Of a DNA stretch of 64,000 bases, positions 4,443 through 61,958 are shown piece after piece. Within the stretch, counting starts at the first letter, position 1. Every line of letters starts with the position of its first letter. This DNA is from an uncultured bacterium (GTDB taxonomy: Bacteria; Chlamydiota; Chlamydiia; Chlamydiales; SM23-39). The translations under genes were made by a program, and so were the position numbers. The notes beneath the pieces are model-generated. The model was not told the DNA's origin, made no database searches, and saw nothing but the letters and a program-made list of their open reading frames with translations. The stretch covers positions 5,670-69,669 of the forward strand of contig CAYPZU010000003.1 in the NCBI GenBank assembly GCA_964415395.1. The letters are read 5' to 3'.

Positions 4443-4512
4443 ATATTTTCTGCCGGCATTGCATAAGAATTCAGGTTTAAGATAAATTGAATCTAAGGTT
4501 TGAGGAAAAATT

Positions 4513-5190: not shown

Positions 5191-5192
5191 TC

Positions 5193-15458: not shown

Positions 15459-15460
15459 AG

Positions 15461-20888: not shown

Positions 20889-21442
20889 CGCTCCGCATCA
20901 TCGGAGGCGCATATAAAGGACGCCTCCTTAAAACTCCTAAAGGCCCTTCGACGCGCCCCACGCAAGGGATGCTCCGCGAAGCTGTGTTCAATATCTGCCA
21001 AAACGAAATCGAAGGGGCCCGGTTCCTCGATCTCTTCGCCGGAAGCGGCGCGATGGCGTTCGAGGCCTTAAGCAGAGGAGCGTCCCATGTCGCGCTCGTT
21101 GAAGAAAACCGCAGCGCGATTGCCTGCATCAAGGAGAACCTGGCCCTTCTCAAAGCCGAAAATTCTGCCGTCCTCCTTCCCGTCAAAGCCGCAAGAGCTC
21201 TTCAAATTCTTTCCAAAGAGCGGTTCACGATCGTCTACATCGACCCTCCCTACGGCACTCCCACCGACCCGCTTCTCGACGCCATCGTCCCTCTCCTCTC
21301 TCCAAACGCCCTTGTATTCCTTGAAGAACGGTACACCCCGAAAGCGCAGAAGAAACCTTACGAACCCGCAAGCCTCGCTCTCCAAAGCTCCCGCCATTTC
21401 GGCGACGCCCTCTTACATGAATATCGGTTTTCAGTTACATAG
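20885..21442 (+). CDS. rsmD: 16S rRNA (guanine966-N2)-methyltransferase
   Basis: The N-terminus reads MTLRIIGGAYKGRLLKTPKGPSTRPT. An SAM motif (LDLFAGSGAMAFEALSRGA) and the DPPY motif (VYIDPPYG) are present. The start forms an ATGA overlap with the VWA gene stop. Confidence 0.85.
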   Translation: MTLRIIGGAYKGRLLKTPKGPSTRPTQGMLREAVFNICQNEIEGARFLDLFAGSGAMAFEALSRGASHVALVEENRSAIACIKENLALLKAENSAVLLPVKAARALQILSKERFTIVYIDPPYGTPTDPLLDAIVPLLSPNALVFLEERYTPKAQKKPYEPASLALQSSRHFGDALLHEYRFSVT

Positions 21443-21448
21443 TGTATT

Positions 21449-21928
21449 ATGGCTCGCATCGGTATCTTCCCAGGCACTTTCGACCCTCCCTCCAAAGGGC
21501 ACCTCGACATCATCCAGCGCGCCAGCCTCATCTGCGACAAACTCCTCATCGCGATCGCCGTGAAGCCTGATAAAAAAGCGCTCTTTTCTCCCGAAGAGAA
21601 AAAGGAAATGCTTCGGCTGATCACCCCTTCGATCCCGAATGTCCAAATTGAAATTTTTGAGGGACTCGTCGTCGACTTCGCCCGTTCTCACAAAGCCCAG
21701 TTCCTGATCCGGGGACTCCGCGCTTTTTCCGATTTCGAATATGAGTTCCAGATGGCGCTTGCTAACAGGCGTCTTTCCGGCATCGAAACGCTCTTCCTGA
21801 TGGCCGACGAGCGGCACACGCAGATCAGCTCCTCGCTCATCCGCGAAATCGCCTATTTCAAAGGGCCGCTCCGCGATTTCGTCCCCGCCGAAATCGAACT
21901 TCTTATCCGCAAGAAATTCGAAAATTAA
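21449..21928 (+). CDS. coaD: phosphopantetheine adenylyltransferase
   Basis: The nucleotidyltransferase signature GIFPGTFDPPSKGHLDII (T/HxGH type) is present, with ISSSLIRE near the C-terminus. Confidence 0.9.
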   Translation: MARIGIFPGTFDPPSKGHLDIIQRASLICDKLLIAIAVKPDKKALFSPEEKKEMLRLITPSIPNVQIEIFEGLVVDFARSHKAQFLIRGLRAFSDFEYEFQMALANRRLSGIETLFLMADERHTQISSSLIREIAYFKGPLRDFVPAEIELLIRKKFEN

Positions 21929-23317: not shown

Positions 23318-25921
23318 TTATCTCGATTCAACGAGCTGCCCGCCTTCGTAATAAAGCACGGTGACATGGCCGTCCTTATCAAACTTCTTCTTCTCGCCTT
23401 CAGGCGTGTCGTAGACGAAAGTCTGCTCTAGATAAGGGCTTCCGTCGTCGTAATACTTGTTGAACTTTCCATGGCGGAGATTGTCCTGGTATTCGGCTTC
23501 GAAGACAAGAACGCCTTCCGGGTTCCAGCTTTGCGCCAGACCGTCCAAGAGATCGTTCCGGTAGCAGAAGATCGATGCGAGCCGTCCGTTTTCATGGTAT
23601 GTTTTTTCTTCGCCTTCCCGCTTATCGTCCATGTAATACGTTTCGCGGTAGACAGCCCCATTGGGGAAATATTGGACAAAGTATCCATTTTTCTTGTCTC
23701 CGGAAAACTCGATTGTCGCGCTGAGTTTTCCTTCTAGATTGTACGCGCGGGCGAGCCCTTGTTTCTGGCCGTTCACGTAAGGAGTTTCTGCGACCTTCAT
23801 TCCTTTATCCGTGTATTCTGAAGCCAATCCTTCGATCTGGTCATTCACGAATTCGATTTCGAGCGCCTTATGTTTTTCCCCTTTGGGATTCGGAGGATAG
23901 TAAACTGTATGAGGCCCGTTTTTCAGGTTGCCGCTGTAGAAGGTAACAACTTCTTTTCCGTCCTGGCTTCTCTGAAAGAACCGTCCCTCGAGCTTGCCGA
24001 GAACATAATTGGCTTCTTCCACGAGGTTCCCCTGAGGATCCCACATCTGCTTCGAACCGTTGACTAACCCGTGTTCATAAGCGAGCTGGGCCTGGAGTTT
24101 GCCTCCTTCATAGAAGGTTTTCTCGACCCCATGCAGCTTCCCTTCGTCGTCATACTGGAAGTAATGGGCAAGGCGGTCGGCATCTTTCTGCCCAGACGCC
24201 GTCTTCGGATAGTAGGTGAGGTGTTCTCCTACAGGCTTTCCCTCTTTGAAGCGCTGGATCGACTGGATCGAGCCGTCGGCATACCAGGAAAGGGCCTCCC
24301 CATCCATTCCGTCATCTTTAAATGAGGCGAACCGCTCTGGATTCCCATTCTGGTGATACCATTCGTGCTTGCCTGTTTTCTTCCCCTTCTCGAAGTGGAA
24401 TTTGGTTTTAATCTGATCCTGGCCCCACCAGGTCAAAACAGTTCCCTCGAGCTGGTCTTTATCGAAAAAGGCTTCAAATACCGGAGCCCCTTTCTCATTC
24501 CATTCGCGATGCCATCCCTGCTTGAGGCCGAAGGCGAATTCGGCTCTGCTTTTCAGCTGGCCGTTTTCATACCACTCGCTCTGGACGCCATCAGGATGGT
24601 CAGCCTGGAAGTATGCGTCGAGGCGGGCGTTGCCGTTCGCGTACCATTCGCCCATCTGCCCATCTTTGAGGCCTTCAGAGAAATGGACTCTGCGGGCCAA
24701 AACGCCGTTTTCGTGCCACTCTTCATGCAGCCCGTCTCTCTGCTGATTTTTGGTGCAGGTGGAGACTTTGATCTGCCCGGAAGGATAGTATTCTTTCTGT
24801 TCCCCTTCGAGCTGGCCGGCGGCATAGTTATATTCTGTCTTCAGCGTCCCGTCCGGATACCACTCTAAAAAGGGGCCGTCCAAACGTTCTCCCGCCATCG
24901 AGAACTGGCGGATTTTCTGTCCCTGGTCGTCGAATTCGGCGACCGGCTCAAGCAGCTGGCCCTTCGCATCGAAATGGGCGATATACGCTGCCGCGCCGTT
25001 CGGGTGGTTGCGCCAGTGTTTCCCCTGCGGGCGGCCCTCGGCGAACATCCCTTCGCCAATCAGCACGCCTTCGTCGCTGAAATACTGCTCTTTTCCTTCT
25101 TTCTTCCCGTTCCGGAAATTGACCCTGTAGGCCTCTTTGCCGTTAGCGTGGTACCGGATATGGAGGCCGACCGGCTGCCCTTCGCGGAAATCGACGACTT
25201 CGATCACGTTTCTCTGCTCGTCATAGCCGATCAGCGCAGGATTTTTCCCGTCTCCGTGCAGCATCCCCTGGAAAAACTGCCGCTGCAGTTTCAACAGGCC
25301 GGAAGCGAACCACTCGATCGCCGTCCCATGGACTTTTCCGTTTTTGTGCGGAAGAACTGCCGCTTTGGAGCCATTCTCATAATATTGGACGACATCCCCC
25401 TCCAGTTTCCCCTCTTCGTAGCTGGCTGTTTCTTTGATCTCGCCGCTTTCGTAAAAAGATTGAGCGGTTCCGTTCAATACTCCATCTCGATAGAAGACTG
25501 AAGTCTGAACCTTGCCGCTCGGGTAGAATGTTTTGCATTCGCCGGAGAGCTGGCCAAGTTCATAGCCGGAAATTTTAGCCAGCTTCCCATCCGCTGAAAA
25601 TTCTACGCGGGCGCCATGGGGAACAAGAGTCGAGTTCCACTGTTTTGCCGCAGCGGAATCCTCATCGACTGTGGCGATATCCATTTCAGACTGGATCCGG
25701 TTGTTTTCGAAAAAGACAACCTGCTTAACCGGGCGCTCGCCATCGAGATTGGGTTCATAGAATAGAACCGTCTGGGGCGTTCCCTGCGGGTAGGATTGGA
25801 CGATGTCGAATCTCCAGTTCGGCTGGCGGGGCTTCAGAGAAACAGCCGTTTGGGGAGGATTGGGCGCTTCCGCTGAAAGGGCGGCTGTGCAAAGGGTCAA
25901 AGCGACTAAAATCTTCTTCAT
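23318..25921 (-). CDS. exported MORN-repeat (YwqK-like repeat) protein
   Basis: ATG 25921 gives a signal peptide (MKKILVALTLCTAALSA). Dozens of roughly 23-aa repeats of the form YYxNGxxxxxxxYxxGxxxGxxxxW/Y occur (for example EWYENGQLKSRAEFAFGLKQGWHREW). Confidence 0.85.
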   Translation of the reverse strand: MKKILVALTLCTAALSAEAPNPPQTAVSLKPRQPNWRFDIVQSYPQGTPQTVLFYEPNLDGERPVKQVVFFENNRIQSEMDIATVDEDSAAAKQWNSTLVPHGARVEFSADGKLAKISGYELGQLSGECKTFYPSGKVQTSVFYRDGVLNGTAQSFYESGEIKETASYEEGKLEGDVVQYYENGSKAAVLPHKNGKVHGTAIEWFASGLLKLQRQFFQGMLHGDGKNPALIGYDEQRNVIEVVDFREGQPVGLHIRYHANGKEAYRVNFRNGKKEGKEQYFSDEGVLIGEGMFAEGRPQGKHWRNHPNGAAAYIAHFDAKGQLLEPVAEFDDQGQKIRQFSMAGERLDGPFLEWYPDGTLKTEYNYAAGQLEGEQKEYYPSGQIKVSTCTKNQQRDGLHEEWHENGVLARRVHFSEGLKDGQMGEWYANGNARLDAYFQADHPDGVQSEWYENGQLKSRAEFAFGLKQGWHREWNEKGAPVFEAFFDKDQLEGTVLTWWGQDQIKTKFHFEKGKKTGKHEWYHQNGNPERFASFKDDGMDGEALSWYADGSIQSIQRFKEGKPVGEHLTYYPKTASGQKDADRLAHYFQYDDEGKLHGVEKTFYEGGKLQAQLAYEHGLVNGSKQMWDPQGNLVEEANYVLGKLEGRFFQRSQDGKEVVTFYSGNLKNGPHTVYYPPNPKGEKHKALEIEFVNDQIEGLASEYTDKGMKVAETPYVNGQKQGLARAYNLEGKLSATIEFSGDKKNGYFVQYFPNGAVYRETYYMDDKREGEEKTYHENGRLASIFCYRNDLLDGLAQSWNPEGVLVFEAEYQDNLRHGKFNKYYDDGSPYLEQTFVYDTPEGEKKKFDKDGHVTVLYYEGGQLVESR

Positions 25922-26020
25922 AGATGTTCCACGCTTTTTTCTTGAGTTGAGTTGGAGGTTCAAGAGTAGAAAAAACTCCAAATTTTCACAAGGTTATCAT
26001 CCGAATGCTGCATTAATTTC

Positions 26021-26818: not shown

Positions 26819-26857
26819 CGCCTTCCCTCCCTTCCTTTCTTGTGGTATACTGACGCC

Positions 26858-27514
26858 ATGAGAAAGCTGATCCAGGGTATTGTAGATTTTAGAAAAGGGC
26901 TGACTGAAGAGCGGCGGGAACTATTTGCCAAACTCGCTCTTGGTCAGAAACCCGACGCCCTCTTTATCGCCTGTTCGGACAGCAGGGTCGTCCCGAATCT
27001 CTTCGCTTCGACGAACCCGGGAGATCTTTTCGTCATCCGGAATATCGGCAACCTGGTTCCTCCTCCGACTCCAACCGAGGAAGACAACAGCGTCCCGGCG
27101 GCGATCGAGTTTTCCCTCTCGACGCTCAATGTTTCGAACATCATCGTCTGCGGACATTCCGACTGCGGGGCTATGCACGCCCTCGTAGCCGGAATCGACA
27201 CGGTTTGCTGCCCTCACCTTAAGTCCTGGCTTAAATACGGCGAAGAATCCCGAAGGAAAGTTGAAAGCGGAATGATTCTCGACCCTTCGCTCACCGTGGA
27301 AAACCAGATTTCCCAAATGAACGTCGTCGAACAGATGGAGCATATAAAGAGCTACCCCTCTGTGCAGGAGCGGATGGAGAAAAAAAAGCTCGGAGTCCAC
27401 GGCCTCTGGTTCGATATCGCGCACGCCGATGTCTATTGCTACGAGCAAAACCAGAACCGCTTCGTTCTCATCGATGAAGAAGAAGCGGATCAGATCTTTA
27501 AACGACTCAATTGA
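26858..27514 (+). CDS. beta-class carbonic anhydrase (cytoplasmic type)
   Basis: ATG 26858 (MRKLIQGIVDFRKG). Zinc-site motifs are present (ACSDSRVVPNL, CGHSDCGAMHA). Confidence 0.9.
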   Translation: MRKLIQGIVDFRKGLTEERRELFAKLALGQKPDALFIACSDSRVVPNLFASTNPGDLFVIRNIGNLVPPPTPTEEDNSVPAAIEFSLSTLNVSNIIVCGHSDCGAMHALVAGIDTVCCPHLKSWLKYGEESRRKVESGMILDPSLTVENQISQMNVVEQMEHIKSYPSVQERMEKKKLGVHGLWFDIAHADVYCYEQNQNRFVLIDEEEADQIFKRLN

Positions 27515-36802: not shown

Positions 36803-38824
36803 TTAAATTTTGGCTCTTTTCAGCCTCAGCGAATTCACTACGACCGACAAAGAACTCAGCGTCATCGCCGCGCTGGCCAAAACAGGACTCATCAAGATCC
36901 CGAAAAAGGGATAAAAAATCCCTGCGGCGACCGGCACTCCCAGCGAATTATAGAGGAAAGCAAACCAAAGGTTCTGCCGGATATTTTTCAACACTTCGCG
37001 GCTTAAAGATCTCGCAGACGCGATCCCTCGCAAATCTCCCTTTACAAGCGTTGCCTGCGCGCTCTCCATCGCAATGTCGGCACCCGTTCCCATCGCGATT
37101 CCCACATCGGCCTGAGCCAGGGCCGGCGCATCGTTGATCCCGTCGCCAGCCATCGCCACCAGATGCCCCTCATTCTGCAGCTTCCTGACGACCTTGCTTT
37201 TCTCCTCGGGCAAAACCCCTCCCATCGCCAGATCGATTCCCAGTTTTTTGCCGACCGCTTCTGCGACTTTCTGCCGATCTCCCGATACAAGAGCGATCTT
37301 CACGCCTTCCCGATGGAGTCTTTCAACCGCCTCAAAAGAAGAAGGCTTTATTGGATCGGAGACGCTTAATATTCCCGCCAGCTTGCCGCCCCATGAGGCG
37401 AAAAATACCGAATGGCCTTCGCTTTCCAGTCTTTGAATTTCCCCTGCCAAAGGAGCCAGATCGATCCCGCTATCGGTGAAATATCTCTCGTTTCCAATCG
37501 CCATCTCTTTTCCTTTGACCGTTCCCGACACGCCCCTCCCTGGCGCAGCCCGGAATTGATCTACTGGAACCAGATCGAGATTCATTTCGCGCGCCTTTTC
37601 TAGAACCGCCTTCGAGATCGGATGCTCGCTCGCCGCCTCCAGGCTCGCTGCCAATTGAAGAAACAGTCCTTTCTCCATCCCCGCCGCCGGAACGATTTCC
37701 TCGAGCTTGGCTTTCCCTTCGGTCAAAGTTCCCGTTTTATCGACGACCAGCCAATCGACAGAACACAATTTTTCAAGGGCGGCCCCATTCTTGATCAGGA
37801 TTCCCTGCTTCGCTCCCAGTCCGATCCCGACAGTTAAAGAGAGGGGAGTGGCCAATCCCAGCGCGCAAGGGCAGGCGATGATGAGGACGGCTACAGCATT
37901 GATGATCCCATGAGCAAGCTTGGGCTCCGGCCCCCACAAAACCCAGACGGCGAATGTGGAAATTGCAATCAGGATGACAGCCGGAACGAAATAGGACGAA
38001 ACTCTGTCGGCCAGATTCTGGATCGGCGCGCGGCTCGCCTGCGCTTCTTTCACAAGACGGACGATTTGAAATAAAAGAGTATCTTCGCCTACGCGGACCG
38101 CTTCCATGACGAACCCGCCTGCGCCATTTAATGAAGCCCCCGAAACTCTATCCCCCTTTTGCTTCTCCGCGAAAAGGGATTCCCCTGTAATCATCGATTC
38201 GTCGATGGATGAGAATCCTTCTGCGATCACACCGTCCACAGGGATCCTTTCTCCAGGGCGGACTCTCAGCAGGTCTCCCTTTTTCACATCGTGCACCGGG
38301 ATCGTTTTTTCGGTTCCGTCAGGGAGGAGCAGGCGAGCCGTTTCCGGGATCAGCGCGAGAAGCTCGCGGATCGCCGCGTTCGTTTTTTTTCTCGCCCTCA
38401 ACTCTAAAACTTGGCCCAGCAAGACCAGCACGGTAATCCCCGCAGCAGCCTCGAAATACAAGTCGAGATGGTTCCAAAGAGCGAAAAGACTGTAGAAATA
38501 AGCCGCGCCCACTCCGATCGAAATCAAAGTGAACATATTGAGACTCCGGAAAACGATCGATTTCCATCCGCGGACGAAAAGAGGAAGCGCCCCCCATAAA
38601 ACAACCGGGCTTGCCAAAACAGCTTGCAGCGGGGGAGAGATCTGCATCGAAAACAGGAGCGGAAGCGAAAGAACAAGGCAGACCCAAAAACGGACGGTCC
38701 AGCTTTTCAGCTCCCGGTCTTCCTCGGACACAGGAATCCACGGTTCTAAAGACATCCCGCAAATAGGACAAATCCCAGGCCCCTCTTGCCGGATCTGAGG
38801 GTGCATGGGACAGGTATAGATCAT
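36803..38824 (-). CDS. copA: copper-translocating P1B-type ATPase
   Basis: CPC ([13 protein letters not shown]), DKTGTLT and [10 protein letters not shown] are present, along with TGES (SMITGESL). The N-terminus is a Cys-rich metal-binding module, [26 protein letters not shown], rather than a classical GMTCxxC HMA domain. Confidence 0.9.
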
Positions 38825-39930
38825 TCAGCCAAGACCTGTTTGTAAGCCTTTTCCATCTCGTCGAGAGTATGCCGGAAGGTAAAATGCCCTTCGACAAGCT
38901 CCCTGGCCTTCCTTCCCAATTGAGAGCGCAATTCCCCATTTTCTTTCAACCGGATAACGGCTTGGGCGACCTGATCCGGAGAAAAAGGAGCCACTTGAAA
39001 ACCCGTCTCTCCATCCAAGCACACCTCTCCAAGCCCCCCCACTGCAGTGGCGATCAAAGGCTTCGCCAGAAACGCCGCTTGCAGAATCGCCTGCGAGACT
39101 CCTTCATGAGCCGTGCTCAGCAGCGCAAACGCATCGAGTCCGGCAAGCGCCGGAAAGGGATTGGCCAAATGCCCTGTGAATTGGACGATGCCGTCAAGCT
39201 TCAGCTCCTTCGCCCTCTGCCGATACGTTTCCGCGTGCCCGCCGCCGATAATCACCCACTTTAATCCAGGAGTTTCTCTCAACCGGTCGGCCGCCTTCAG
39301 AAAATCGTCGATCCCTTTCCAGGAGCGCATAAAACAGGCGGTTCCCACAAGAAACTCTTCCGACTTCGCGCCGATCTCCTCCCTGAACCGCTTCGACTCA
39401 GAAGCGCTGACCACAATCCGGGAGGGATCGACCCCCGTGGCCACCGAACGGCAAAGCTCGATCTTTTTTCCAGACTGGCTGCAGATCATCGGGATGATCC
39501 CTTTGCAGGTCGTAACGACGAAATCGGCCAGCCTTCCATATAAAAGACGGCTATTCCATCCGGCCTTAATCGGAGTTGAAAGATGCCGGGTCCGCACGAC
39601 AGGCCGGCGGGCGATCCGTGCAGCAATCCCCCCGATCCATCCATCCAGCGACGAATGGGTATTCACAACGTCGATCCGGTGGCGCAAAATAATCCAGAGC
39701 AGCTGCAGCAGACAGATCGGCCAGGCCGGCTGGCGGAAATTCAGCTCATAAACTGTAAATCCAGCTTTGCGCGCCTGCTCGACCAACCCGCCGCCCCGCA
39801 TCACCCCCATCACAACGCGATGGCCCCTTTGAACCATCCCCTCCGATTCGCGGAGGATCCGGATCTCCTGTCCGCCCCAGCCGGGCGACGCCTCTAAATG
39901 TAAGATTTGCATGGGCTTCCGCATTTTCAC
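38821..39930 (-). CDS. GT4-family (GT-B fold) glycosyltransferase
   Basis: The N-terminus is typical ([16 protein letters not shown]), and the C-terminal EX7E-type region reads [34 protein letters not shown]. Candidate starts are GTG 39930 or ATG 39912. The stop forms an ATGA overlap with copA. Confidence 0.8.
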
Positions 39931-40964
39931 GAAGTTAAAGAGTTCTCTTTTATAATTGCAACCTTCAGAATTTTTCTATGTCCTGAAGAAAACGGCAGCT
40001 CATGAAGCCTCTCTTTTTCAATCCAGATATGGCCGGCCACTTCCCGCATCTCGGCGCGAACCATAAACGGCTTCAGATAGGCTTTGAACCGGGTGAATGT
40101 ATGAGTCACTTCAGGAAGGCGCCTGATAACCCGCCACTGTTTAAAGCCGAGCCTGAAATTCTCCGTCCTCTCTTCAGTGTAAGGAAATTCGTACAAATCG
40201 GCCATCACGCGCCCCGCTTCGCCCTTTCTGACCAGCACTTTCCCTTCGGCTTCGATCCAAAAAACAATCCGATCCAGCTCGATTGTCTTCGCCTCTTCAT
40301 TTTTGATCGGAAGCGCTTCGGCTTTCCGCTCTGAAAACGCCTTGCAGCCCGATTGAAGCGGACACCCCTCGCAGCGGGGCCTTGGTGCGCAATGGGTCGC
40401 CCCCAGTTCGATCAGCGCCTCTGCAGTCACCCACGGCTCCTTCTCATCCAAAAGCCTTTCCGCTCTCGCCTGAAGCTCTCTCTTCACAGCCGCTTTGGAC
40501 ACATTCTCCTCGATGAGGAAATAACGGCTGAGAACCCGGACGACATTCCCGTCGACCGCAGCAGCCCGCTTGTGGAATCCAAAACTTAAAATCGCTCCTA
40601 CCGTGTAAGGGCCCAGCCCGCGGATCGATTCGAGATCTTCTTTCCGATCTGGAATTTCGCCGCCAAACCTCTCGGCAATTTCTCTCGCCCCCGCATGCAA
40701 ATTTCTCGCGCGGCTGTAATATCCGAGCCCCTCCCACGCCTTGATCACCGCGTCCAAAGGCGCTGCCGCCAACGCTTCCACATCCGGGAATCGCTCCATC
40801 CAGCGCTCAAAATAGGGGATGACGACCGCGGCGCGCGTCTGCTGCAGCATCACCTCGGAAATCCATACCCGGTAGGGGGTCTTTTCCCGGCGCCAGGGAA
40901 AATCCCTCCGATTCCGCTCAAACCACAGGTGCAATTCCTTCATAGAAAAAACCCAATTCTGCAA
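39927..40964 (-). CDS. mutY: A/G-specific adenine DNA glycosylase
   Basis: The HhH-GPD core reads PYRVWISEVMLQQTRAAVVIPYFERW and LGYYSRARNL. The 4Fe-4S Cys cluster is present (CAPRPRCEGCPLQSGC), followed by a NUDIX-like C-terminal domain. An alternative start is ATG 40943. Confidence 0.9.
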   Translation of the reverse strand: MQNWVFSMKELHLWFERNRRDFPWRREKTPYRVWISEVMLQQTRAAVVIPYFERWMERFPDVEALAAAPLDAVIKAWEGLGYYSRARNLHAGAREIAERFGGEIPDRKEDLESIRGLGPYTVGAILSFGFHKRAAAVDGNVVRVLSRYFLIEENVSKAAVKRELQARAERLLDEKEPWVTAEALIELGATHCAPRPRCEGCPLQSGCKAFSERKAEALPIKNEEAKTIELDRIVFWIEAEGKVLVRKGEAGRVMADLYEFPYTEERTENFRLGFKQWRVIRRLPEVTHTFTRFKAYLKPFMVRAEMREVAGHIWIEKERLHELPFSSGHRKILKVAIIKENSLTS

Positions 40965-40975
40965 TGATAGATCTT

Positions 40976-41013
40976 ATGAACCTATAACCCCTCTACTTTG
41001 CGGATAGATTCAT
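40976..41013. repeat. short copy of the 9167..9298 element, ending on the ATG of the first TagF-like gene
   Basis: The sequence is ATGAACCTATAACCCCTCTACTTTGCGGATAGATTCAT. It shares TATGAACCTAT and ACCC.TC.TA.TTTGCGGATAG.TTC with the first locus. The arms GAACCTAT/ATAGATTC pair with one mismatch. Confidence 0.6.
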
Positions 41014-42004
41014 GGAACCCGCCGGACTCATTTACGACGACTCGCCCCACTACATCGACCACCTCGCCCCCTTTTGCGCCCAAATGAATTGGCCGCTCTG
41101 GGTTTGCGAGCCGGCAGTGGCCGATCTTTGCCGCGCCTATTATCCAGATCTGGACGTTGTCGAAAAAGACCTTTTCACGCTCTCCCTTCCAAATCCTCTT
41201 CTCGCCTGCGATCCCCTGGCGCTCCTCAGCGCCTCATTTCCAGGCAAACCGATCCGCTCCCTCTGGCTCCCCCACGGCAATTCCGACAAAGGCTGGAGAG
41301 GCCCGTTCTTCGAGGCGCTCTCTCCTTCGGAAACAGCGCTCGTGTACGGCCAGAAAATGATCGACTTCCTAAACCAGAAACAGGTTTCCGCCCAAACCGT
41401 CTCTGTCGGAAACTTTCGCGCCTCCTACTGGGAATCGCACCGCTCCTTTTACACTCCTATCCTGAAAGAAAAAATCCTCTCCCGGCTCCCCGCAAACCCG
41501 ATCTATCTCTACGCTCCCACCTGGAGCGACCAGGAAGATAACGGCTCTTTCTGGCGCGCCTTCCCTGAACTTGCGGATGCTTTGCCGCCCGCTCTCAATC
41601 TCGTCGTCAAACTCCACCCCAACATCCGCCGCAAAGACGAAATCCGACTCGAAATCCTCCTCGGGCGCTATGAAAATCGCCCCAACATCCTCTTTCTCGA
41701 AGATTTCCCTCCCGTCTATCCGCTTCTCAGCCTCGCGTCCGCCTACATCGGAGACATGTCTTCCGTCGGCTACGATTTTCTCTATTTCAACAAACCGATG
41801 TACTTTCTGAACCCCAATCGAAGAGACGCACAATCCGATCCCGGACTCTACCTTTTTCGGTGCGGCGTCGAAACGAACCCGGCCCAGGCATTCCTCTTAG
41901 GGCAAAATGAAGACCCCCTCCAGAATGTCAGAGAGGAAACGTATCGCTATACCTTCGGCCCCGCACCTGACTGGACCGAACTCAAAAAAAAGCTCGCCCC
42001 ATGA
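41012..42004 (+). CDS. CDP-glycerol glycerophosphotransferase-family (TagB/TagF-like) protein, paralog 1
   Basis: Family motifs are present: IYLYAPTWSD, VVKLHPNI and YIGDMSSVGYDFLYFNKPMYFLNP. Confidence 0.7.
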   Translation: MEPAGLIYDDSPHYIDHLAPFCAQMNWPLWVCEPAVADLCRAYYPDLDVVEKDLFTLSLPNPLLACDPLALLSASFPGKPIRSLWLPHGNSDKGWRGPFFEALSPSETALVYGQKMIDFLNQKQVSAQTVSVGNFRASYWESHRSFYTPILKEKILSRLPANPIYLYAPTWSDQEDNGSFWRAFPELADALPPALNLVVKLHPNIRRKDEIRLEILLGRYENRPNILFLEDFPPVYPLLSLASAYIGDMSSVGYDFLYFNKPMYFLNPNRRDAQSDPGLYLFRCGVETNPAQAFLLGQNEDPLQNVREETYRYTFGPAPDWTELKKKLAP

Positions 42005-43023
42005 ACTTCCGATGCGCCGCCCTCAACACAGGCTCCGACATCCACCTGCTCGACCACATCGCGCCTCTGGCCAGTCTTCTCGAAATGCCGCTCATCATAA
42101 CCGAAGAACTCAACTACAGCCTCGCAACAAAATACTACCCCCAGATCGAAACACTCTACGAGCCGGATCTGGAGCACAAACTCGGAGATCTCGCCGCCTC
42201 CTACGACGTCCTCTTCGAATGCAAATACTGGGCTCCTCATCTCAAGCTTCTCTTCCGGCAGCTCTTCAACAAAGAAATGCGGCTCGTTTTCTGCCCTCAT
42301 GGCCAATCCGATAAAGGCTATCAAAGCCCTCTTCTCGCTCCCTACGTCCAGCAAGACCGGGTTCTCCTGTACGGGGAGCTTCTCCATCAGATGCTCAACG
42401 AACTCGAACTTCCGCTCCCGCCATCAGCCGCAATCGGAAACTACCGCCTCAATTTTTACAAAAAACACCGCCCTTTCTACGACGCGCTGGCTGAAGCCGA
42501 AATTTTTTCCAGGCTCCCGCGCGGCAACCCCATCCTTCTTTACGCCCCCACGTGGAAAGATGCCGACTGCTCTACTTCCTTCTTCGACTGGACGCCTGAA
42601 CTTCTTGCTCAGCTCCCTCCCCGCTGGAATCTGATCATCAAACTCCACCCTCTTCTCGAGCAACGAGATCCAGCCCGCTTCTATTCGCTCGCCGCCCGAG
42701 CTGAAAATCAACCCAATGTCGTTTTGCTCTCCGAATTTCCTCCTGTCTACCCGATCCTCTCCCGCGTCGACTGTTATCTGGGCGACGCCTCTTCGGTCGG
42801 GTACGATATGCTTCCCTTTGAGAAGCCCCTTTTCTTTACTCCCGGCCCCCCGCGCCGACTCCATTCGTGCGGTGAAATCGTAGACTCCCCCGCGGCCCTC
42901 TTCCAAAAAAATCTCACAACTCCCTTCCGCAAACAGCAGAAGGAACTCTATGCGCGCGCGTTCACTCCCATCACCGATGCGGAAGCCAAAAAAAACATTG
43001 TTACAATTCTAATCGGCGCTTAG
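42001..43023 (+). CDS. CDP-glycerol glycerophosphotransferase-family (TagB/TagF-like) protein, paralog 2
   Basis: The same motifs occur: ILLYAPTWKD, IIKLHPLL and YLGDASSVGYDMLPFEKPLFFTPG. The start forms an ATGA overlap with paralog 1. Confidence 0.7.
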   Translation: MNFRCAALNTGSDIHLLDHIAPLASLLEMPLIITEELNYSLATKYYPQIETLYEPDLEHKLGDLAASYDVLFECKYWAPHLKLLFRQLFNKEMRLVFCPHGQSDKGYQSPLLAPYVQQDRVLLYGELLHQMLNELELPLPPSAAIGNYRLNFYKKHRPFYDALAEAEIFSRLPRGNPILLYAPTWKDADCSTSFFDWTPELLAQLPPRWNLIIKLHPLLEQRDPARFYSLAARAENQPNVVLLSEFPPVYPILSRVDCYLGDASSVGYDMLPFEKPLFFTPGPPRRLHSCGEIVDSPAALFQKNLTTPFRKQQKELYARAFTPITDAEAKKNIVTILIGA

Positions 43024-44133
43024 AGAGGGGAGAATGAAAAGAGTCCGCAGATCGTTGAGGCAATAGGCCGCAGGGCGCACTTCGATTTCGTACGCGTAGC
43101 TTCCTTCCTTGAGAGGAGCGATCCAGGAAACCGTCCCCGTCAATAGCCCGGCAGGGAAAACTCCATCCAATCCTGAAGTAACGAGCAAGTCGCCCTCTTT
43201 CAGAATCGGCTGCGCCGGCAGGCTAGAACCAACTGCACGCCCAGTCCTCAGATCTCGCGCAGGACCTTCCTCGTCAGCATAATCGTAGTTAAACCCAACG
43301 CCTGACAATACCAGGCCCCGGGATCTCCAAAATGGGGCGCTGCTTCCATGCAGCTCTCCTTTGGCCAGATAGCTTTCCTCAAGCGCAGGGTCGAGCTTCG
43401 ACTTCAGCCCGTCCAGCCGAGTTAAAATAGACTGCTTCTCTTCGAAGCTGGCAAACAGGTCTTCGCGCACTTCAAGCCGGCTCAAGAGGCCATTTAAAAT
43501 CAGCCCCAGCTCCCGGTTCTGGATCCCTCCGCGGACAGCTCTGACGGCGGGGGAGAGTCCCGAGTCGGTGATGAGGCGAACCCGCGACTGCTTTTCCCCG
43601 ACATAATCAACCACCCCTACGAGAGCGCAGCCGGAAACCACGGGACTGTTTTTAGAAATGACCTTTCTTCCTAAAGCCCTGTTGTCTTCTTCTCCCGCAT
43701 ACACCCATAGGCTGCTGCTCCAGGAGCTGGGATCGCGGTAAATCACCTCAGCAGGGAAGGAGAGCAGCTGGCTCTCCAGCTTGCCGCGGAGCTGCGCCGC
43801 GCGCCGCTTGAAAAACTCATTTTTCGGCACAGCTTTCAAAACCTCGAGCTGGTCTCCGATCTGCGCCTCAAAATGGATCCAATCCTGCGCCGATTCAATC
43901 CGCGCCCTCAGATTCTGATTTTCCCACTGGAGGCGGGCGATTTCCTTCCCGCTATCGACAGATCTGCGATCCTGAAATAGCCTGCCCCAGCCTTTCCAGA
44001 TCGGCGAAAAAGAGGCGACCGCAAAGGAGCGGAGAGAGTCGGAAGCTGCCCGCGGCAAACTGATCCAGCAGAAAAGGAAAATCCCCAGTACGAAATAAGG
44101 ATAGGAAACGGTTCTTCGACTCATGCCCCGCAC
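43009..44133 (-). CDS. mreC: rod-shape-determining protein MreC
   Basis: It has an N-terminal TM segment and a coiled coil (LQWENQNLRARIESAQ). The beta domains read GCALVGVVDYVGEKQSRVRLITDSGLSPAV and GDLLVTSGLDGVFPAGLLTGTV. Confidence 0.85.
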   Translation of the reverse strand: MRGMSRRTVSYPYFVLGIFLFCWISLPRAASDSLRSFAVASFSPIWKGWGRLFQDRRSVDSGKEIARLQWENQNLRARIESAQDWIHFEAQIGDQLEVLKAVPKNEFFKRRAAQLRGKLESQLLSFPAEVIYRDPSSWSSSLWVYAGEEDNRALGRKVISKNSPVVSGCALVGVVDYVGEKQSRVRLITDSGLSPAVRAVRGGIQNRELGLILNGLLSRLEVREDLFASFEEKQSILTRLDGLKSKLDPALEESYLAKGELHGSSAPFWRSRGLVLSGVGFNYDYADEEGPARDLRTGRAVGSSLPAQPILKEGDLLVTSGLDGVFPAGLLTGTVSWIAPLKEGSYAYEIEVRPAAYCLNDLRTLFILPSLSAD

Positions 44134-45317
44134 ACTGTAAGAATATTTTCGGCAACATATCCGAGATTTTTTGCGGTCAATCCCGCAACATTGATCCGCC
44201 CGCTGTCGAGCAGATAGATTCCGAAACGGTCGATCAACTGCTGGGTCTGGCTTTTATCCAGATCGACGTAGGAAAACATCCCCTTATGTTTCTTAAGGTA
44301 GCTGAAATCGATCTTTTTTGAGCCTGCGCTCAGCCTCTGGATCAGCGCTTCCCGCATCATCACAAGGCGGTGGCGCATCCCTTCAAGGTCTTTGAGCCAC
44401 CCTTTTTTCAGCTCGCTATCCTTCAGAATTTCAAGAACGATGTTGGCTCCATGAGCGGGAGGATTGGAGTAGAGAGCCCTGATCACCCGCTTCACCTGGC
44501 TCCCGATCCGCGTCTTGCCTGCCGCATTCCCGCCGACGACAAAAAGCGCCCCGACCCGCTGGCAATACAAGCTGAAATTTTTCGAGCATGAATAGGCAAT
44601 CAGCATCTCATGCCCCTCTTGAAGAAAGGCCCGGATCGGAGCCGCATCTCTTTCCATCCCATCGCCCAATCCCTGGTAGGCCAGATCAAAAAAAGGCAGC
44701 AGTTTTTTCCGCTTCAAGATCTGGGAAATCGCTTTCCATTCATCGGGCGTCGGATCGCAGCCTGTCGGATTATGGCAGCACCCGTGCAGCACTACAACGG
44801 TCTTTTCCGGCAGCGCTTCGAGACATTTTTCCATCGCAGCGAAATCGAATCCCTTCATCCCGCGCGAATAGTAATCGTAACTGCTTACCGTTGCGCCCGC
44901 CCGCTCGAAAATCATCCGGTGGTTCGGCCAGGTAGGATGGGAAATGGCAGCCAAACGCCCGACTTCCTGCGTCAAAAATTCGGCGCCGACCCGCAAAGCC
45001 CCTGTTCCGCCAGCGGTTTGCGCGCCATAGATCCGCGCGCGATTTTCTTTCCAAAGCTCTTCGCCAAAAACCAGAGCGCCGATCGCTTCTGCAAATTCCT
45101 GGATTCCATCCATCGGCAAATAATCAGCAAGGATATCGGTTCCTAAAATCCGCTCTTTCGCTTTTCTCACCGTGGGAAGAAGTTCGGAACGGAGATGCTC
45201 ATCTTTGAAAATTCCCACCAGAAGATTCACTTTCTGGGGGCGCGGATCGGACTGGAAGACGCTTGTGAGACCGAAAACAGGGTCGGGAGGGCCCTCGGGA
45301 ACATGATCAAAAAACAT
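44121..45317 (-). CDS. aspC: class-I aspartate/aromatic aminotransferase
   Basis: The PLP-lysine context SCSKNFSLYCQRVGAL is present, with LLHGCCHNPTG, FFDLAYQGL and GRINVAGL. Confidence 0.9.
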   Translation of the reverse strand: MFFDHVPEGPPDPVFGLTSVFQSDPRPQKVNLLVGIFKDEHLRSELLPTVRKAKERILGTDILADYLPMDGIQEFAEAIGALVFGEELWKENRARIYGAQTAGGTGALRVGAEFLTQEVGRLAAISHPTWPNHRMIFERAGATVSSYDYYSRGMKGFDFAAMEKCLEALPEKTVVVLHGCCHNPTGCDPTPDEWKAISQILKRKKLLPFFDLAYQGLGDGMERDAAPIRAFLQEGHEMLIAYSCSKNFSLYCQRVGALFVVGGNAAGKTRIGSQVKRVIRALYSNPPAHGANIVLEILKDSELKKGWLKDLEGMRHRLVMMREALIQRLSAGSKKIDFSYLKKHKGMFSYVDLDKSQTQQLIDRFGIYLLDSGRINVAGLTAKNLGYVAENILTVCGA

Positions 45318-59232: not shown

Positions 59233-60933
59233 ATGCGCTGGCTATTCCGCTCTGATTTTCGCTCTTTTTATCTATTGAATGCGACTCAGTTCCTGGGAGC
59301 TCTCAACGACAACGTCTTCAAGCTCCTCGTCATTTATCTCCTGATCTACGTGAAAGGCCCTGCATCCGCCAACTCGATTCTTTCGATTGCAGGAGCCGTA
59401 TTTGTCATGCCGTTTCTCTTCTTCTCCTCAAGCGCAGGGATCCTGGCCGACCGGATCAGCAAGAGAACCATCATCGTAGCCACTAAAGTTCTCGAGCTCG
59501 TCATCATGGCCTTCGGACTTTTGTGCGTTTACTACGAATGGGAATTCGGCCTCTACACAGCCCTCTTTTTCATGGCGACCCAGAGCACTCTCTTCGGCCC
59601 CTCCAAATACGGGATCATCCCGGAGCTTGTAGAGGGGAAAATGGTCTCAAAAGCGAATGGGTCGATGACCTCCTTCACCTATCTGGCGATCATTCTCGGC
59701 ACCTTTCTCGCCTCGTTCATAACGGACATCACCGACAAGAATTTTATTCTCGAATCGTATTTCTGCATTCTGATCGCTTTGATCGGAGTCCTCACGAGCT
59801 TAGGGATCCGGCGCACAGCCCCTCAAAATTCGCCAAAGAAAATCAATCCTTTTTTCCTCTATGAAGTGTATCAAACTCTCAAGGTGAGCTGGAACATCCC
59901 GCATCTGCTTCCAGCTATTTTGGGATCCTCCTTTTTTCTCTTCATCGGAGCCTTCACGCAGCTCAACATTATCCCGTTCGCCATGCAGTCTCTTGGCTTA
60001 AGCGAAGTGGGCGGGGGGTACCTCTTCCTGGCAACCGCAGTGGGGATCGCCATCGGAGCGGTCATCTCAGGCCAGCTCTCGAAAGACCGGGTTGAACCGG
60101 GCATCTCCTGCATAGCGGGATTTTTCATCGCATTTTTCTTCCTCTGCCTCTGTCTCTTTTCTTTCTCACTGATTATGACGATCATTATTCTTAGCCTGCT
60201 GGGACTCTTCGGCGGAGCCTATCTGATCCCTTTCGACTCGTTTCTCCAAGTCAATAGCCCTGACGAAAAAAGGGGGCAAGTCATCGCAACATCAAATTTC
60301 TTCAGTTTTTTCGGCGTGCTGATGGCTTCCTTCGCCCTCTATTTCATCAGCGAGGAGCTGGAATTCACTGCGGCCAGCGGATTTGCCCTGATGGGACTCC
60401 TGACGCTGATTGCGAACATCATCATCACAGGGCGCCTCTCCGCGCTATTCCTTCCCTTTTTCGTCCAAAGAGTCCTTAAGAAGTTCAGAAGGCTCAAACT
60501 CGCCTCGCCCATCCCCCTGCCGAGCCAAGTGATCATCCTCCAGAGCAATTCGTGGTGGGACGCCCTGCTCCTATTCTCCTGCGTCCCGAAACTGAAAATT
60601 CTGCTGCCCGACCGCTATTTCCGCCGCTTTCCCTGGTTCAACGGCCTCGTTGCTTCCATGCGGATTGTTCCCCCGGAACCGGATATCGACTCCACTCTAG
60701 AAATGCTTTTAGGGCAGGCGAAGCGGATACAGGATCAAAACTGCACAGCCTGCCTATTCTTCCACAGAAGAGAAGACAGCACTGAGATTATTCATTCGTA
60801 TAAGAAAGTGTTTGGACGGTTGAAATATGAGATTGTGTTCGCTCATGGCATCAAAGAGCGGACGCCGAAGAAATTCCTCTTCTTCAACTACTTCCAGAAA
60901 CAGATCACAATGACATTCACAAAAGAGCCTTAA
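59233..60933 (+). CDS. LplT-like MFS lysophospholipid transporter fused to a C-terminal PlsC/Aas-like acyltransferase-type domain
   Basis: The N-terminus is LplT-like (FRSFYLLNATQFLGALNDNVFKLLVIYLL) with about 12 TM segments. The C-terminal 150 aa or so align by eye with the Aas acyltransferase domain, but HX4D reads S-NSWW-D. Confidence 0.7.
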   Translation: MRWLFRSDFRSFYLLNATQFLGALNDNVFKLLVIYLLIYVKGPASANSILSIAGAVFVMPFLFFSSSAGILADRISKRTIIVATKVLELVIMAFGLLCVYYEWEFGLYTALFFMATQSTLFGPSKYGIIPELVEGKMVSKANGSMTSFTYLAIILGTFLASFITDITDKNFILESYFCILIALIGVLTSLGIRRTAPQNSPKKINPFFLYEVYQTLKVSWNIPHLLPAILGSSFFLFIGAFTQLNIIPFAMQSLGLSEVGGGYLFLATAVGIAIGAVISGQLSKDRVEPGISCIAGFFIAFFFLCLCLFSFSLIMTIIILSLLGLFGGAYLIPFDSFLQVNSPDEKRGQVIATSNFFSFFGVLMASFALYFISEELEFTAASGFALMGLLTLIANIIITGRLSALFLPFFVQRVLKKFRRLKLASPIPLPSQVIILQSNSWWDALLLFSCVPKLKILLPDRYFRRFPWFNGLVASMRIVPPEPDIDSTLEMLLGQAKRIQDQNCTACLFFHRREDSTEIIHSYKKVFGRLKYEIVFAHGIKERTPKKFLFFNYFQKQITMTFTKEP

Positions 60934-61958
60934 AGAAGGCCTTTTTTCACAAAATAAAGATCGAGAAGCCGATAGAGCAGCACATATTGGGCTTTTTGCC
61001 CAACCATATGGAAACGCTGCAGGGAAAGCTGGCTGACGATTTCATCAACGCTCAGTTGAATCTCCTCCAGTTTTTTCCCCGCATTCAGCTGCTCTTCCGC
61101 CATCTGGATGAGTGTGAAAGCGGCAATAAAGGTCCCTGTTCGGCCGACGCCTGCGCTGCAATGGACAGCGATCAGATCTTTTTCAGGGCTATAGCCTGCC
61201 CGAACCTTCTGAACCAATTGATAAAGAAGCTCCGGATGGGTTCCGTGATTATCGACCCAGTCTTCGCAAACGTAATAGGGGAGATCCACTGAATAACTAT
61301 CCCTACGAGGAACAGAGAGAATCCATTCATCCTGCCCAGAAACCGGAGCCATTCTCCCCTCCCAATAGGGATGACACTTCTTTTGCGCTCCATCGTAGCT
61401 AGGAGTCAATCGGACAAGGCGGCTTGCATGAGAATTGAGGAGCAGCCGAAAGAATCCAGCCTCGTCTTTCGAGCGCGTTCCTTCCATCGCAAGAAACCGA
61501 AGCCCTTCGATGTTGATATTGCTCGAATTGTAATAGTCGCAGCTCTTGTTGTAATCGAAAGCGACGCAATTAGGGACCCGGACATGGTCGCCTACAATCA
61601 ATTCTTCAGCGATTGCAAAGTCTGGATGCACCTCGCGGACAGGATCTTTCAAACTCACATACCAGGCGAGCGTACGGTCTTCAAAAATCCGCAGAAACTC
61701 TGCTTCGATTTCCTGCTGCGGCCTATGCGGCGACCAAGCGCGGAAAATTTTTCCAGCCCGGAATCGATCCCATCGTTTCTCAAATTCAGCCCGCGCTATC
61801 TGAAATCGGGCATCTACAGCTCCTTTTGATTGGACAGCAGGACCCTGATCGAATAAATGAAGCTTGGCTGACTCTAACCAATCTGAATTCTGGGAAAAAC
61901 CTGCAACGGAAATGAGAAAAAGAGCCGCTTTAGAAAGCGTAGATAAATTCGAGTTCAT
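60930..61958 (-). CDS. secreted classical protein-tyrosine phosphatase
   Basis: It has a signal peptide (MNSNLSTLSKAALFLISVAGFS). The P-loop is VHCSAGVGRTGTF (CX5R), a WPD-like loop reads EDWVDNHGTHP, and a CHPYW motif is present. Confidence 0.85.
   Translation of the reverse strand: MNSNLSTLSKAALFLISVAGFSQNSDWLESAKLHLFDQGPAVQSKGAVDARFQIARAEFEKRWDRFRAGKIFRAWSPHRPQQEIEAEFLRIFEDRTLAWYVSLKDPVREVHPDFAIAEELIVGDHVRVPNCVAFDYNKSCDYYNSSNINIEGLRFLAMEGTRSKDEAGFFRLLLNSHASRLVRLTPSYDGAQKKCHPYWEGRMAPVSGQDEWILSVPRRDSYSVDLPYYVCEDWVDNHGTHPELLYQLVQKVRAGYSPEKDLIAVHCSAGVGRTGTFIAAFTLIQMAEEQLNAGKKLEEIQLSVDEIVSQLSLQRFHMVGQKAQYVLLYRLLDLYFVKKGLL

Follow-up and report, generated by a model that had tools for sequence, protein, structure and literature searches.

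Chlamydiae are usually pictured with an envelope of LOS and a reduced or ring-like peptidoglycan; we know of no teichoic-acid-like or polyol-phosphate component in that picture. What, then, do two adjacent transferase genes of the teichoic-acid type contribute to a chlamydial genome? The window (the whole stretch of DNA analysed, 64,000 nucleotides) carries both on the + strand, gene A at 41012..42004 (330 aa) and gene B at 42001..43023 (340 aa). A preliminary description had read them as a tandem pair of glycerophosphotransferases lying between mutY/GT4/copA and mreC. The ORF coordinates and a direct reading of the junction bear out the tandem arrangement and the ATGA stop/start overlap (42001..42004, + strand). 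The junction sequence is GCCCCATGAACTTCC, in which the ATG of B (42001-42003) overlaps the TGA of A (42002-42004), and this overlap suggests translational coupling. A spacing could be computed for 27 related loci; in 23 of them A and B were an estimated -41 to +15 nt apart. The neighbours were also as described: copA (36803-38824), a GT4 gene (38821-39930) and mutY (39927-40964) on one side, mreC (43009-44133) and an aromatic aminotransferase gene (44121-45317) on the other, all on the - strand. The GT4 gene had only generic GT4 matches and was not counted as part of the A/B system. The mutY and A genes diverge from a short intergenic stretch (40965..41011), the presumed A-B promoter region; a promoter scan found no consensus promoter in it, and the promoter and terminator scan was at background level.

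Gene A was assigned as a minimal TagF-like (PF04464) GT-B phosphotransferase from its ORF, Pfam, AF2, Foldseek, hhalign and orthologues. Gene B was assigned as a paralogue of A from its ORF, Pfam, BLASTP, AF2, hhalign and its neighbour-joining clade; the two proteins share 36% identity from end to end (E 5e-64, BLASTP). Membership of the Glyphos_transf family, as first proposed, held up: with a gathering score of 22.1, PF04464 gave A 47.4 bits (E 1.8e-12) and B 39.2 bits (E 5.2e-10), both far above chance level, in a match that spans profile positions 188-307 of 367 only. Precomputed PF04464 matches are recorded for all listed A/B homologues. A profile of A found TarL (7.5e-7), Bcs3-CroT (2.7e-6), TagF (1.8e-4) and Cps3D (2.4e-4) in the PDB, and hhalign against a canonical alignment gave 97.1% probability for A (E 5e-11) and 97.9% for B (E 3.2e-13). 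Standard local alignment reaches just the C-terminal half of A and B, and the match around the N-domain His is seen only with global or low-stringency hhalign.

Aligned with the canonical enzymes, both proteins have the expected active-site residues, and the motifs quoted in the preliminary description are present (LYAPTWSD, KLHP and GDMSSVGYDFLYFNKPMYF in A; LYAPTWKD, KLHP and GDASSVGYDMLPFEKPLFF in B). In the N-domain of A, residues 87-94 (PHGNSDKG, 41270..41293, + strand) hold H88, the putative catalytic base (TagF H444), with WLPHGNSDK aligned to TWHGTPLK. K93, five residues after this His, is the putative pyrophosphate-binding Lys (CroT K101, TagF K449), and N90-S91-D92 would occupy the predicted donor-alcohol pocket. 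The B equivalents are residues 99-106 (PHGQSDKG, 42295..42318, + strand), with H100 as the base and K105. The second catalytic His, located by HMMER and hhalign, lies in KLHP, at A residues 200-203 (H202; 41609..41620, + strand) and B residues 214-217 (H216; 42640..42651, + strand). KLHP aligns with RMH/KMH, and H202 and H216 would correspond to TagF H584 (a position fixed from PDB variant sequences), TarL H433 and CroT H233. The nucleotide-binding loop is YAPTWSD in A (residues 167-173, 41510..41530, + strand) and YAPTWKD in B (residues 181-187, 42541..42561, + strand); A168, P169, T170 and W171 are kept in at least 95% of representatives and position 172 is variable. The canonical (T/S)DYSS motif appears as GDMSSVGYD in A (residues 247-255, 41750..41776, + strand) and GDASSVGYD in B (residues 261-269, 42781..42807, + strand). 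By hhalign, GNFR of A (residues 133-136, 41408..41419, + strand) aligns with canonical GxPRxD, and its invariant R136 with the PRND Arg of TagF. Family alignments also gave IDHLAP in A (residues 15-20, 41054..41071, + strand), in which D16-H17 is a family-specific conserved pair without a counterpart in canonical TagF; its equivalent in B is L17-D18-H19. Conservation was scored in 141 family representatives, at most 50% identical, and in alignments of both paralogues. Both His and the pyrophosphate Lys are invariant throughout. The preliminary description had named two outcomes as fatal to it, a failure of profile searches to place the ORFs in Glyphos_transf and a lack of the catalytic His in a proper alignment; both were checked, and neither occurred.

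The AF2 models (A, pLDDT 93.4 and pTM 0.91; B, pLDDT 94.5) have alternating beta/alpha elements in two halves, and A and B are predicted to adopt a GT-B fold of two Rossmann-type domains. TagF was the top Foldseek match for A and among the top matches for B (E 4e-9 and 1.3e-10 respectively, TM about 0.6). UDP-GlcNAc 2-epimerases, HepE and GT4 enzymes score equal to TagF; Foldseek against the PDB cannot tell TagF from epimerases or GT4 enzymes, and the fold was not used as family evidence. These equal scores would be expected if the proteins were epimerases, GT4-like enzymes or other generic GT-B proteins that Pfam had misassigned. One or both proteins might also be inactive, with B for example a regulatory or scaffold partner of A, and about one lineage in four does indeed manage without B. 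Against both versions, the sequence profiles match TagF-like proteins only, and neither clade, A or B, shows any change in the catalytic and nucleotide-binding residues, deeply diverged as its members are. We consider it extremely unlikely that either protein is inactive or misassigned; judged by these residues, A and B are probably both catalytically active.

Outside the catalytic residues, A and B depart from the characterised enzymes in three places. The base His of the known enzymes is TagF H444, TarL H300 and CroT H96 (residue roles from PMC10901376 and PMC10299916), and in TagF and TarL it is preceded by a Trp that stacks on the imidazole (PMC10901376). This Trp (TagF W443, TarL W299) is replaced by Pro in A (P87) and B (P99); the Pro is kept in 96% of representatives, and A has a Trp only at -3. 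The donor is reported to be encoded in the loop after the His, with Pro-Leu for glycerol-phosphate and Gly-Ala-Phe for ribitol-phosphate (PMC10901376), or with Pro versus Gly as the marker (PMC10299916). The loop reads HGNSDK in A and HGQSDK in B and fits neither the Pro-Leu (glycerol) nor the Gly-Ala-Phe/Gly (ribitol) code; Ser is invariant in the A/B family at the Pro/Gly position (TagF P447). The A/B family also lacks the Arg after APT(W/F/Y), having S, K or Q there; this criterion was derived from alignment, the Arg being invariant in the canonical sequences examined, including TagF, TarL and CroT. The assignment as glycerophosphotransferases thus stood as far as the TagF-like family is concerned, but glycerol was overstated.

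Might A and B nevertheless be ordinary CDP-glycerol glycerophosphotransferases, a TagB/TarF-like primase pair that equips a lipid-linked glycan with one or two glycerol-phosphate units, with TagD encoded elsewhere in the genome? Automated annotation does label the A/B homologues 'CDP-glycerol glycerophosphotransferase family protein', the loop from base His to Lys has the length found in TagF (HGTPLK versus HGNSDK) and not that of the longer ribitol loop of TarL, and in size and in having one domain the proteins are like TagB, TarF and CpsA. The invariant Ser in place of the glycerol-marker Pro speaks against this possibility, as does the failure of both proteins to match any NCBIfam equivalog, Tag or Tar. 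The genomic context points the same way. In the canonical clusters examined tagD or cps7B adjoins the transferase, whereas a search of 751 kb of DNA (the window plus related loci) yielded no TagD-type motif. The only PF01467 (cytidylyltransferase-fold) gene of the window, at 21449-21928, is CoaD (TIGR01510, 187.8 bits, cut-off 103.3), in agreement with the earlier remark that no TagD-like gene is visible there. We regard an ordinary CDP-glycerol primase pair of this kind as unlikely.

A different donor class was also weighed. LOS-making chlamydiae all produce CMP-Kdo, and KpsC/KpsS, WbbB and sialyltransferases share an 'HP' motif. A and B could then be glycosyltransferases with a CMP-sugar as donor, CMP-Kdo being the most plausible one, and with attack at the anomeric carbon as in those enzymes. 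The KLHP motif, the loss of the canonical Arg after APTW and the want of a linked CDP-polyol synthase would all suit such an activity, and one family member (P0039) has a precomputed match to PF05159 (the KpsC/KpsS family) besides PF04464. The profile searches contradict it: at E<=10 the A profile matched only TagF-like PDB chains and no KpsC, WbbB or sialyltransferase, and at E<=1 Pfam gave PF04464 as the sole family for both A and B. The His-His-Lys triad of the CroT type is, moreover, fully kept. CMP-sugar transfer is accordingly very improbable for this pair.

The reading that we favour, and hold to be probable with moderate confidence, is that A and B are anciently duplicated minimal TagF-like phosphotransferases, both active, each making a single addition from a CDP-X donor. 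We infer the chemistry from homology. Each protein would bind CDP-X (a cytidine-diphosphate-activated alcohol) in its C-terminal Rossmann domain, and the N-domain His (H88 in A, H100 in B) would deprotonate an acceptor hydroxyl, which would attack the beta-phosphorus of CDP-X. The Lys at His+5 and the second His (H202/H216) would assist the departure of CMP, and an acceptor-O-phospho-X phosphodiester would result. In CroT the H96/H233/K101 triad, equivalent to H88/H202/K93 of A, is said to hold the donor pyrophosphate (PMC10299916).

Whether such enzymes polymerise depends on what surrounds the catalytic domain. TagF, TarL and TarK would share this domain and mechanism with A and B, but the polymerases of the family bear an extra N-terminal domain, together with amphipathic membrane helices and polymer-retaining basic clusters (PMC10901376), none of which was evident in the sequences and models of A or B. 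The AF2 models predict no N-terminal extension, no long terminal helix and no evident amphipathic membrane helices. As A and B (330-340 aa) consist of a GT-B domain and nothing more, with no N-terminal domain of the polymerase kind, single addition is most likely, and each would add one unit in the manner of TagB, TarF or CpsA. The proposal that the pair builds or decorates a polymer is narrowed by this result, a long polymer being less likely than single additions. Both proteins lack a signal peptide and transmembrane segments (maximum KD19 1.4); they are apparently soluble and, lacking these segments, would be expected to act on the cytoplasmic side.

The closest parallels in build are TagB, TarB and TarF, the single-addition glycerol-phosphate transferases of wall teichoic acid. 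They too are PF04464 proteins with a single GT-B domain of similar size (TarF, 388 aa). Both catalytic His recur in them, as do the APTW loop, the D-x-S-S motif and the Lys at His+5; they likewise occur as several paralogues, which act in sequence within one pathway, as A and B would. Unlike these enzymes, A and B have Pro for Trp, no Arg after APTW and a predicted pocket of NSD/QSD instead of TPL, and are about 50 aa shorter. They are also more acidic (pI 5.1 and 6.0, compared with 7.6-8.7 for five canonical sequences retrieved), a comparison that is not decisive. No tagD, tagO, tagA or tagGH lies near A/B, and the host is a diderm intracellular bacterium. Among diderm bacteria, CroT of Bcs3 (H. 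influenzae type b capsule; residues 1-373) and CgoT of Cps3D are compact TagF-like GT-B modules, as A and B are, but form domains of multi-enzyme polymerases. A Gly marks ribitol-phosphate transfer in CroT (PMC10299916), where the A/B family has Ser.

For the acceptor, we turn to a Gram-negative comparison. Chlamydial LOS ends in Kdo. CpsA, the 'transition transferase' of Actinobacillus pleuropneumoniae group 2 capsules, is a PF04464 enzyme that adds one glycerol-phosphate to Kdo (PMC11666461). It belongs, as A and B do, to a Gram-negative bacterium, and acts on the cytoplasmic side with a second transferase. By analogy with CpsA, our leading guess is that the acceptor may be a Kdo-terminated glycolipid such as LOS; peptidoglycan or lipid II would be the second guess. 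The two systems differ in several respects. The gene for CpsA lies in a capsule cluster that also encodes Cps7B, a CDP-glycerol synthase, and CpsA works with CpsC, a polymerase of the LicD family and not a paralogue (PMC11666461), whereas A and B are paralogues with mutY, GT4, mreC and aspC as neighbours. Cps7A has a predicted long basic C-terminal helix (PMC11666461), which the A/B models lack. No capsule export or kps genes were found in the window, and the A/B locus is not a group 2 capsule cluster, which would bring kpsMT/kpsCS together with a gene for a CDP-glycerol synthase.

The distribution of the pair was then considered. A single scan of genome contigs, seeded by exact query peptide words, recovered the block mutY <> A-B <> mreC-aspC in the genomes of 42 Chlamydiota species, with Parachlamydiales, Simkaniaceae, Rhabdochlamydiaceae and Anoxychlamydiales among them, so that the locus, for which mapping across the phylum had been proposed, is not peculiar to one genome. 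Carriers of A/B include NZ_OZ244056.1 (Simkania sp.), OZ247587.1 (Neptunochlamydia sp.) and the 1.92-Mb contig ERZ25039529 contig_180. All named A/B homologues are from Chlamydiota; together with the gene order shared with these 42 genomes, this confirms that the DNA is chlamydial, as it had first appeared. Gene A, the first of the pair, was found in every related locus (42 loci), and B, the second, is absent from about one quarter of them. The pair forms a vertically inherited, phylum-wide feature of environmental Chlamydiota, and its constant place in the gene order is older than the divergence of Anoxychlamydiales, Simkaniaceae, Rhabdochlamydiaceae and Parachlamydiales. Horizontal transfer was rejected, the GC content of the region being unremarkable and the synteny phylum-wide. 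In a neighbour-joining tree A and B formed two separate paralogue clades, by which the duplication is judged to be ancient. The family stands apart as a group of its own, with 414 clusters (at 50% identity) at E<=1e-30 and 609 at E<=1e-10, and is, as far as could be seen, restricted to Chlamydiota. Should Chlamydiaceae prove to lack the pair, genome reduction in that family would have removed it.

In other loci, the ORFs inserted between mutY, A, B and mreC are transposase-like or encode an AAA ATPase, a McsB-like kinase or a conserved coiled-coil protein; all are unrelated, and they were rejected as pathway partners. One lineage has glgC and Metallophos genes ahead of A, and no functional link was seen for these either. 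The literature search, which took in the supplement of a chlamydial pangenome paper, found nothing tying PF04464, TagF or teichoic acid to Chlamydiae and no biochemical or genetic paper on members of the A/B family.

The constant neighbour mreC raises a further possibility, namely that A and B make a teichoic-acid-like substituent attached to peptidoglycan, the adjacency reflecting a cell-wall link. A-B always adjoins mreC in the related loci, and Protochlamydia peptidoglycan is reported in a review to bear 'unidentified chemical modifications' (PMC5814848), which might be this substituent. The order of the whole block is conserved, however, taking in mutY, aspC and rpoD as well, and the adjacency consequently says little on function. 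Simkania-lineage genomes have two or three A/B copies, yet no sacculus could be isolated from Simkania (PMC5814848). Nor were TagO, TagA, TagGH or LCP-type genes found among the Pfam-scanned ORFs of the window. A peptidoglycan-attached product of this kind is decidedly improbable.

Within the favoured reading of A and B as single-addition phosphotransferases, a more specific proposal can be made, although it is quite unlikely to be right in all its parts: the pair may install a phosphodiester substituent on the Kdo region of LOS or on the peptidoglycan of environmental chlamydiae, from a donor that is neither CDP-glycerol nor CDP-ribitol. One possibility under this proposal is a housekeeping CDP-alcohol, such as CDP-methylerythritol from IspD, which would explain why a dedicated cytidylyltransferase is missing from the locus. 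Protochlamydia peptidoglycan, too, is a candidate site, and its 'unidentified chemical modification' could be this substituent.

Judged by their sequences, A and B are a divergent form of the TagF-like family, set apart from the canonical enzymes by the donor loop, the Pro before the base His, the lost Arg and the bare domain. The conservation of an apparently active pair implies that a phosphodiester-linked, unstudied molecule has been maintained, and the pair points to a phosphate-linked component in the envelope of environmental chlamydiae. Identifying the product would add a component to the model of the Chlamydiota envelope; it might account for the reported peptidoglycan modifications and would widen the known donor range of TagF-like enzymes.

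Genes A (41012-42004, plus strand, 330 aa) and B (42001-43023, plus strand, 340 aa) were found exactly where the preliminary description had placed two tandem ORFs, on the same strand. Their junction reads GCCCCATGAACTTCC, and the proposed ATGA overlap, in which the ATG of B overlaps the TGA of A, was confirmed. The two proteins are 36% identical across their full length (E 5e-64), and all of the motifs quoted for the pair are present in both. The neighbours are also as described: genes for a copper P-type ATPase (copA), a GT4 glycosyltransferase and MutY lie upstream of A on the minus strand, while those for MreC and an aromatic aminotransferase lie downstream, convergent with B, followed by RpoD. 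A Tol-Pal cluster, type II secretion genes, recBCD and a MOMP-like fragment, all in the window, fit a chlamydial genome.

Several other genes of the window may be of host-interaction or envelope interest: those for a ShlB/FhaC-type two-partner secretion transporter (10509-12257, plus strand), an 887-aa MORN-repeat protein (23318-25981, minus strand), a eukaryote-like protein tyrosine phosphatase (60930-61958, minus strand) and the MOMP-like fragment, a weak match at the window edge (63317-63997, minus strand). Two beta-class carbonic anhydrase genes (14862-15704, minus strand, and 26840-27514, plus strand) lie less than 12 kb apart. A MurI-like Asp/Glu racemase gene (5854-6705, plus strand; PF01177, E 1.7e-17) comes after tolQ..tolB-pal and a LysM protein gene (1220-5861). 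Pathogenic Chlamydia are reported to lack MurI (PMC5814848), so the lineage of the window may produce D-Glu by the standard route.

Both proteins belong to Glyphos_transf (PF04464), as had been proposed, with 47.4 bits for A and 39.2 bits for B (threshold 22.1), the match being confined to the C-terminal Rossmann half. The NCBIfam search returned no Tag or Tar equivalog for either. In the PDB, every chain matched by a profile of 45 A-type sequences was TagF-like (TarL, 7.5e-7; the CroT domain of Bcs3, residues 1-373, 2.7e-6; TagF, 1.8e-4; Cps3D, 2.4e-4). Profile-profile comparison with a canonical reference, built from annotated plasmid genes and picking up TagF at 6.6e-123, gave probabilities of 97.1% for A and 97.9% for B. 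The AlphaFold models were confident (pLDDT 93.4 and pTM 0.91 for A, 94.5 and 0.92 for B) and showed two beta/alpha domains. Foldseek ranked TagF first or close to it, yet UDP-GlcNAc 2-epimerases and one GT4 enzyme scored equally, so the fold indicates GT-B without specificity for TagF. The predicted TagF-like membership of A and B is based on sequence profiles and motifs.

In PDB variant sequences, the TagF residues H444 and H584 are located in QTWHG and LRMHY. The title of entry 3L7M reads 'H548A', yet its sequence departs from wild-type TagF at His584 (LRMAY instead of LRMHY), and the title seems to be misprinted. H202 of A (KLHP) fell on TagF H584 already in the default local alignment; the match reached the N-terminal domain only with global or low-stringency hhalign. 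In that mode SLWLPHGNSDK aligned with YIQTWHGTPLK, placing A H88 on H444 and K93 on K449, DDSPHY near the N-terminus aligned with SDSPKY, and GNFR with GYPRND. In the AlphaFold model H88 lies in the loop directly after strand 83-85. Among 141 family representatives, at most 50% identical to one another, P87, H88, G89, S91, D92, K93, G133, R136, P169, T170, W171, K200, H202, P203, D248, S250, S251, Y254 and D255 (A numbering) were at least 96% conserved, and the B-type alignment gave the identical set. In characterised enzymes the two His, together with the Lys at His+5, serve to activate the nucleophile and to keep the donor pyrophosphate in place (PMC10901376, PMC10299916). Both His are kept in A and B. 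The proposal would have failed had profiles not placed the ORFs in Glyphos_transf or had the catalytic His been missing; each condition was checked, and neither applied. We regard an inactive or misassigned pair as barely plausible. A CMP-Kdo glycosyltransferase is very unlikely too: this pyrophosphate triad is conserved, and neither Pfam nor the PDB search with the A profile revealed similarity to KpsC or WbbB.

Three homologue searches gave 1203, 1266 and 728 matches; wherever these carried an organism name it was chlamydial, bar a few MAGs labelled Verrucomicrobia. Three such MAGs (L007, L037 and L040) have the chlamydial mutY/A-B/mreC/aspC order, and where rpoD was in range (L007 and L040) RpoD was 94-96% identical to that of the window; they are probably mislabelled Chlamydiota. 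One genome per species gave 42 loci spanning Parachlamydiales, Simkaniaceae, Rhabdochlamydiaceae, Anoxychlamydiales and Neptunochlamydia, nearly all with the order GT4-mutY, A-B on the opposite strand, and mreC-aspC. A was present in every locus, B was absent from about a quarter, and two loci had three copies. Of the 27 loci that had both genes and allowed the A-B spacing to be computed, 23 gave an estimate of -41 to +15 nt. In a neighbour-joining tree, first-gene and second-gene copies formed two clades; as each contains Anoxychlamydiales, Simkaniaceae, Rhabdochlamydiaceae and the group of the window, the duplication predates all four. Among 1.84 billion cluster representatives, the number of clusters matched by the A profile was 414 at E<=1e-30, 609 at E<=1e-10 and no more than 3527 at E<=1e-3. 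These counts set the family apart as a discrete branch. The GC content was unremarkable and the synteny is phylum-wide; A and B are taken as vertically inherited, and a genomic island origin was rejected.

The family differs from characterised enzymes at several positions. Where TagF and TarL have a Trp stacked on the base His, the family has Pro, and S, K or Q takes the place of the Arg that all canonical sequences examined show after APT(W/F/Y). An additional Asp-His pair is conserved near the N-terminus. The donor-alcohol pocket loop is HG(N/Q)SDKG, of glycerol-type length with an invariant Ser-Asp, whereas Pro-Leu specifies glycerol-phosphate and Gly or Gly-Ala-Phe ribitol-phosphate (PMC10901376, PMC10299916). 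A canonical PF04464 gene on a Segatella copri plasmid (L054 1-3109), with the loop WHGNPIK, directly follows phosphonopyruvate decarboxylase and phosphonoacetaldehyde reductase genes, which hints that some family members transfer units other than glycerol- or ribitol-phosphate. Family polymerases carry an additional N-terminal domain, and members attach to membranes via amphipathic helices (PMC10901376). Unlike TarL-type polymerases, A and B comprise nothing beyond the GT-B domain (330-340 aa; pI 5.1 and 6.0), and a sequence scan found no hydrophobic segment in either.

The expectation that the window lacks a TagD-like gene was borne out: its only cytidylyltransferase-fold gene (21449-21928, plus strand, after rsmD at 20699-21442) was rejected as an activating enzyme and identified as coaD (TIGR01510, 187.8 bits), and no TagD-type motif turned up in the 751 kb made up by the window and every locus fetched. 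In the canonical clusters examined tagD or cps7B adjoins the transferase. With tagD missing from the window and those loci, and Ser where the glycerol code has Pro, a plain CDP-glycerol primase pair seems unlikely, if the strongest of the alternatives.

Genes inserted beside A or B in other lineages were unrelated to glycan synthesis. In one Chlamydiales lineage (L047/L048 7947-10001) A is preceded on its own strand by glgC and a gene for a 250-aa metallophosphoesterase, whose stop overlaps the A start. In more divergent chlamydial lineages (L016, L018-L021, L024, L026, L029, L035 and L041; e.g. L018 4257-4844) a conserved coiled-coil ORF of 165-210 aa with the motif KEIxLMREILANMHQEE directly precedes A on the same strand; it had no Pfam or NCBIfam match and was not at the equivalent position in the window. 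The GT4 neighbour gave generic matches only, and adjacency to mreC is weak evidence because the whole block is syntenic.

A peptidoglycan-linked polymer is improbable: Protochlamydia peptidoglycan does bear unidentified chemical modifications, but A/B genes also occur in Simkania-lineage genomes, and from Simkania no sacculus could be isolated (PMC5814848). We consider it rather probable that A and B both function as TagF-like phosphotransferases, each transferring a single phospho-alcohol unit from a CDP-activated donor. On the cytoplasmic side, the target would be a hydroxyl group carried by a non-protein acceptor, and the two proteins would act in succession or as a complex. Kdo is the terminus of chlamydial LOS. 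Among diderms, the nearest functional precedent is Actinobacillus CpsA, a member of PF04464 that attaches a single glycerol-3-phosphate to the Kdo of the capsule glycolipid, which a second enzyme then extends (PMC11666461). By this analogy, LOS would be a reasonable candidate acceptor for A and B.
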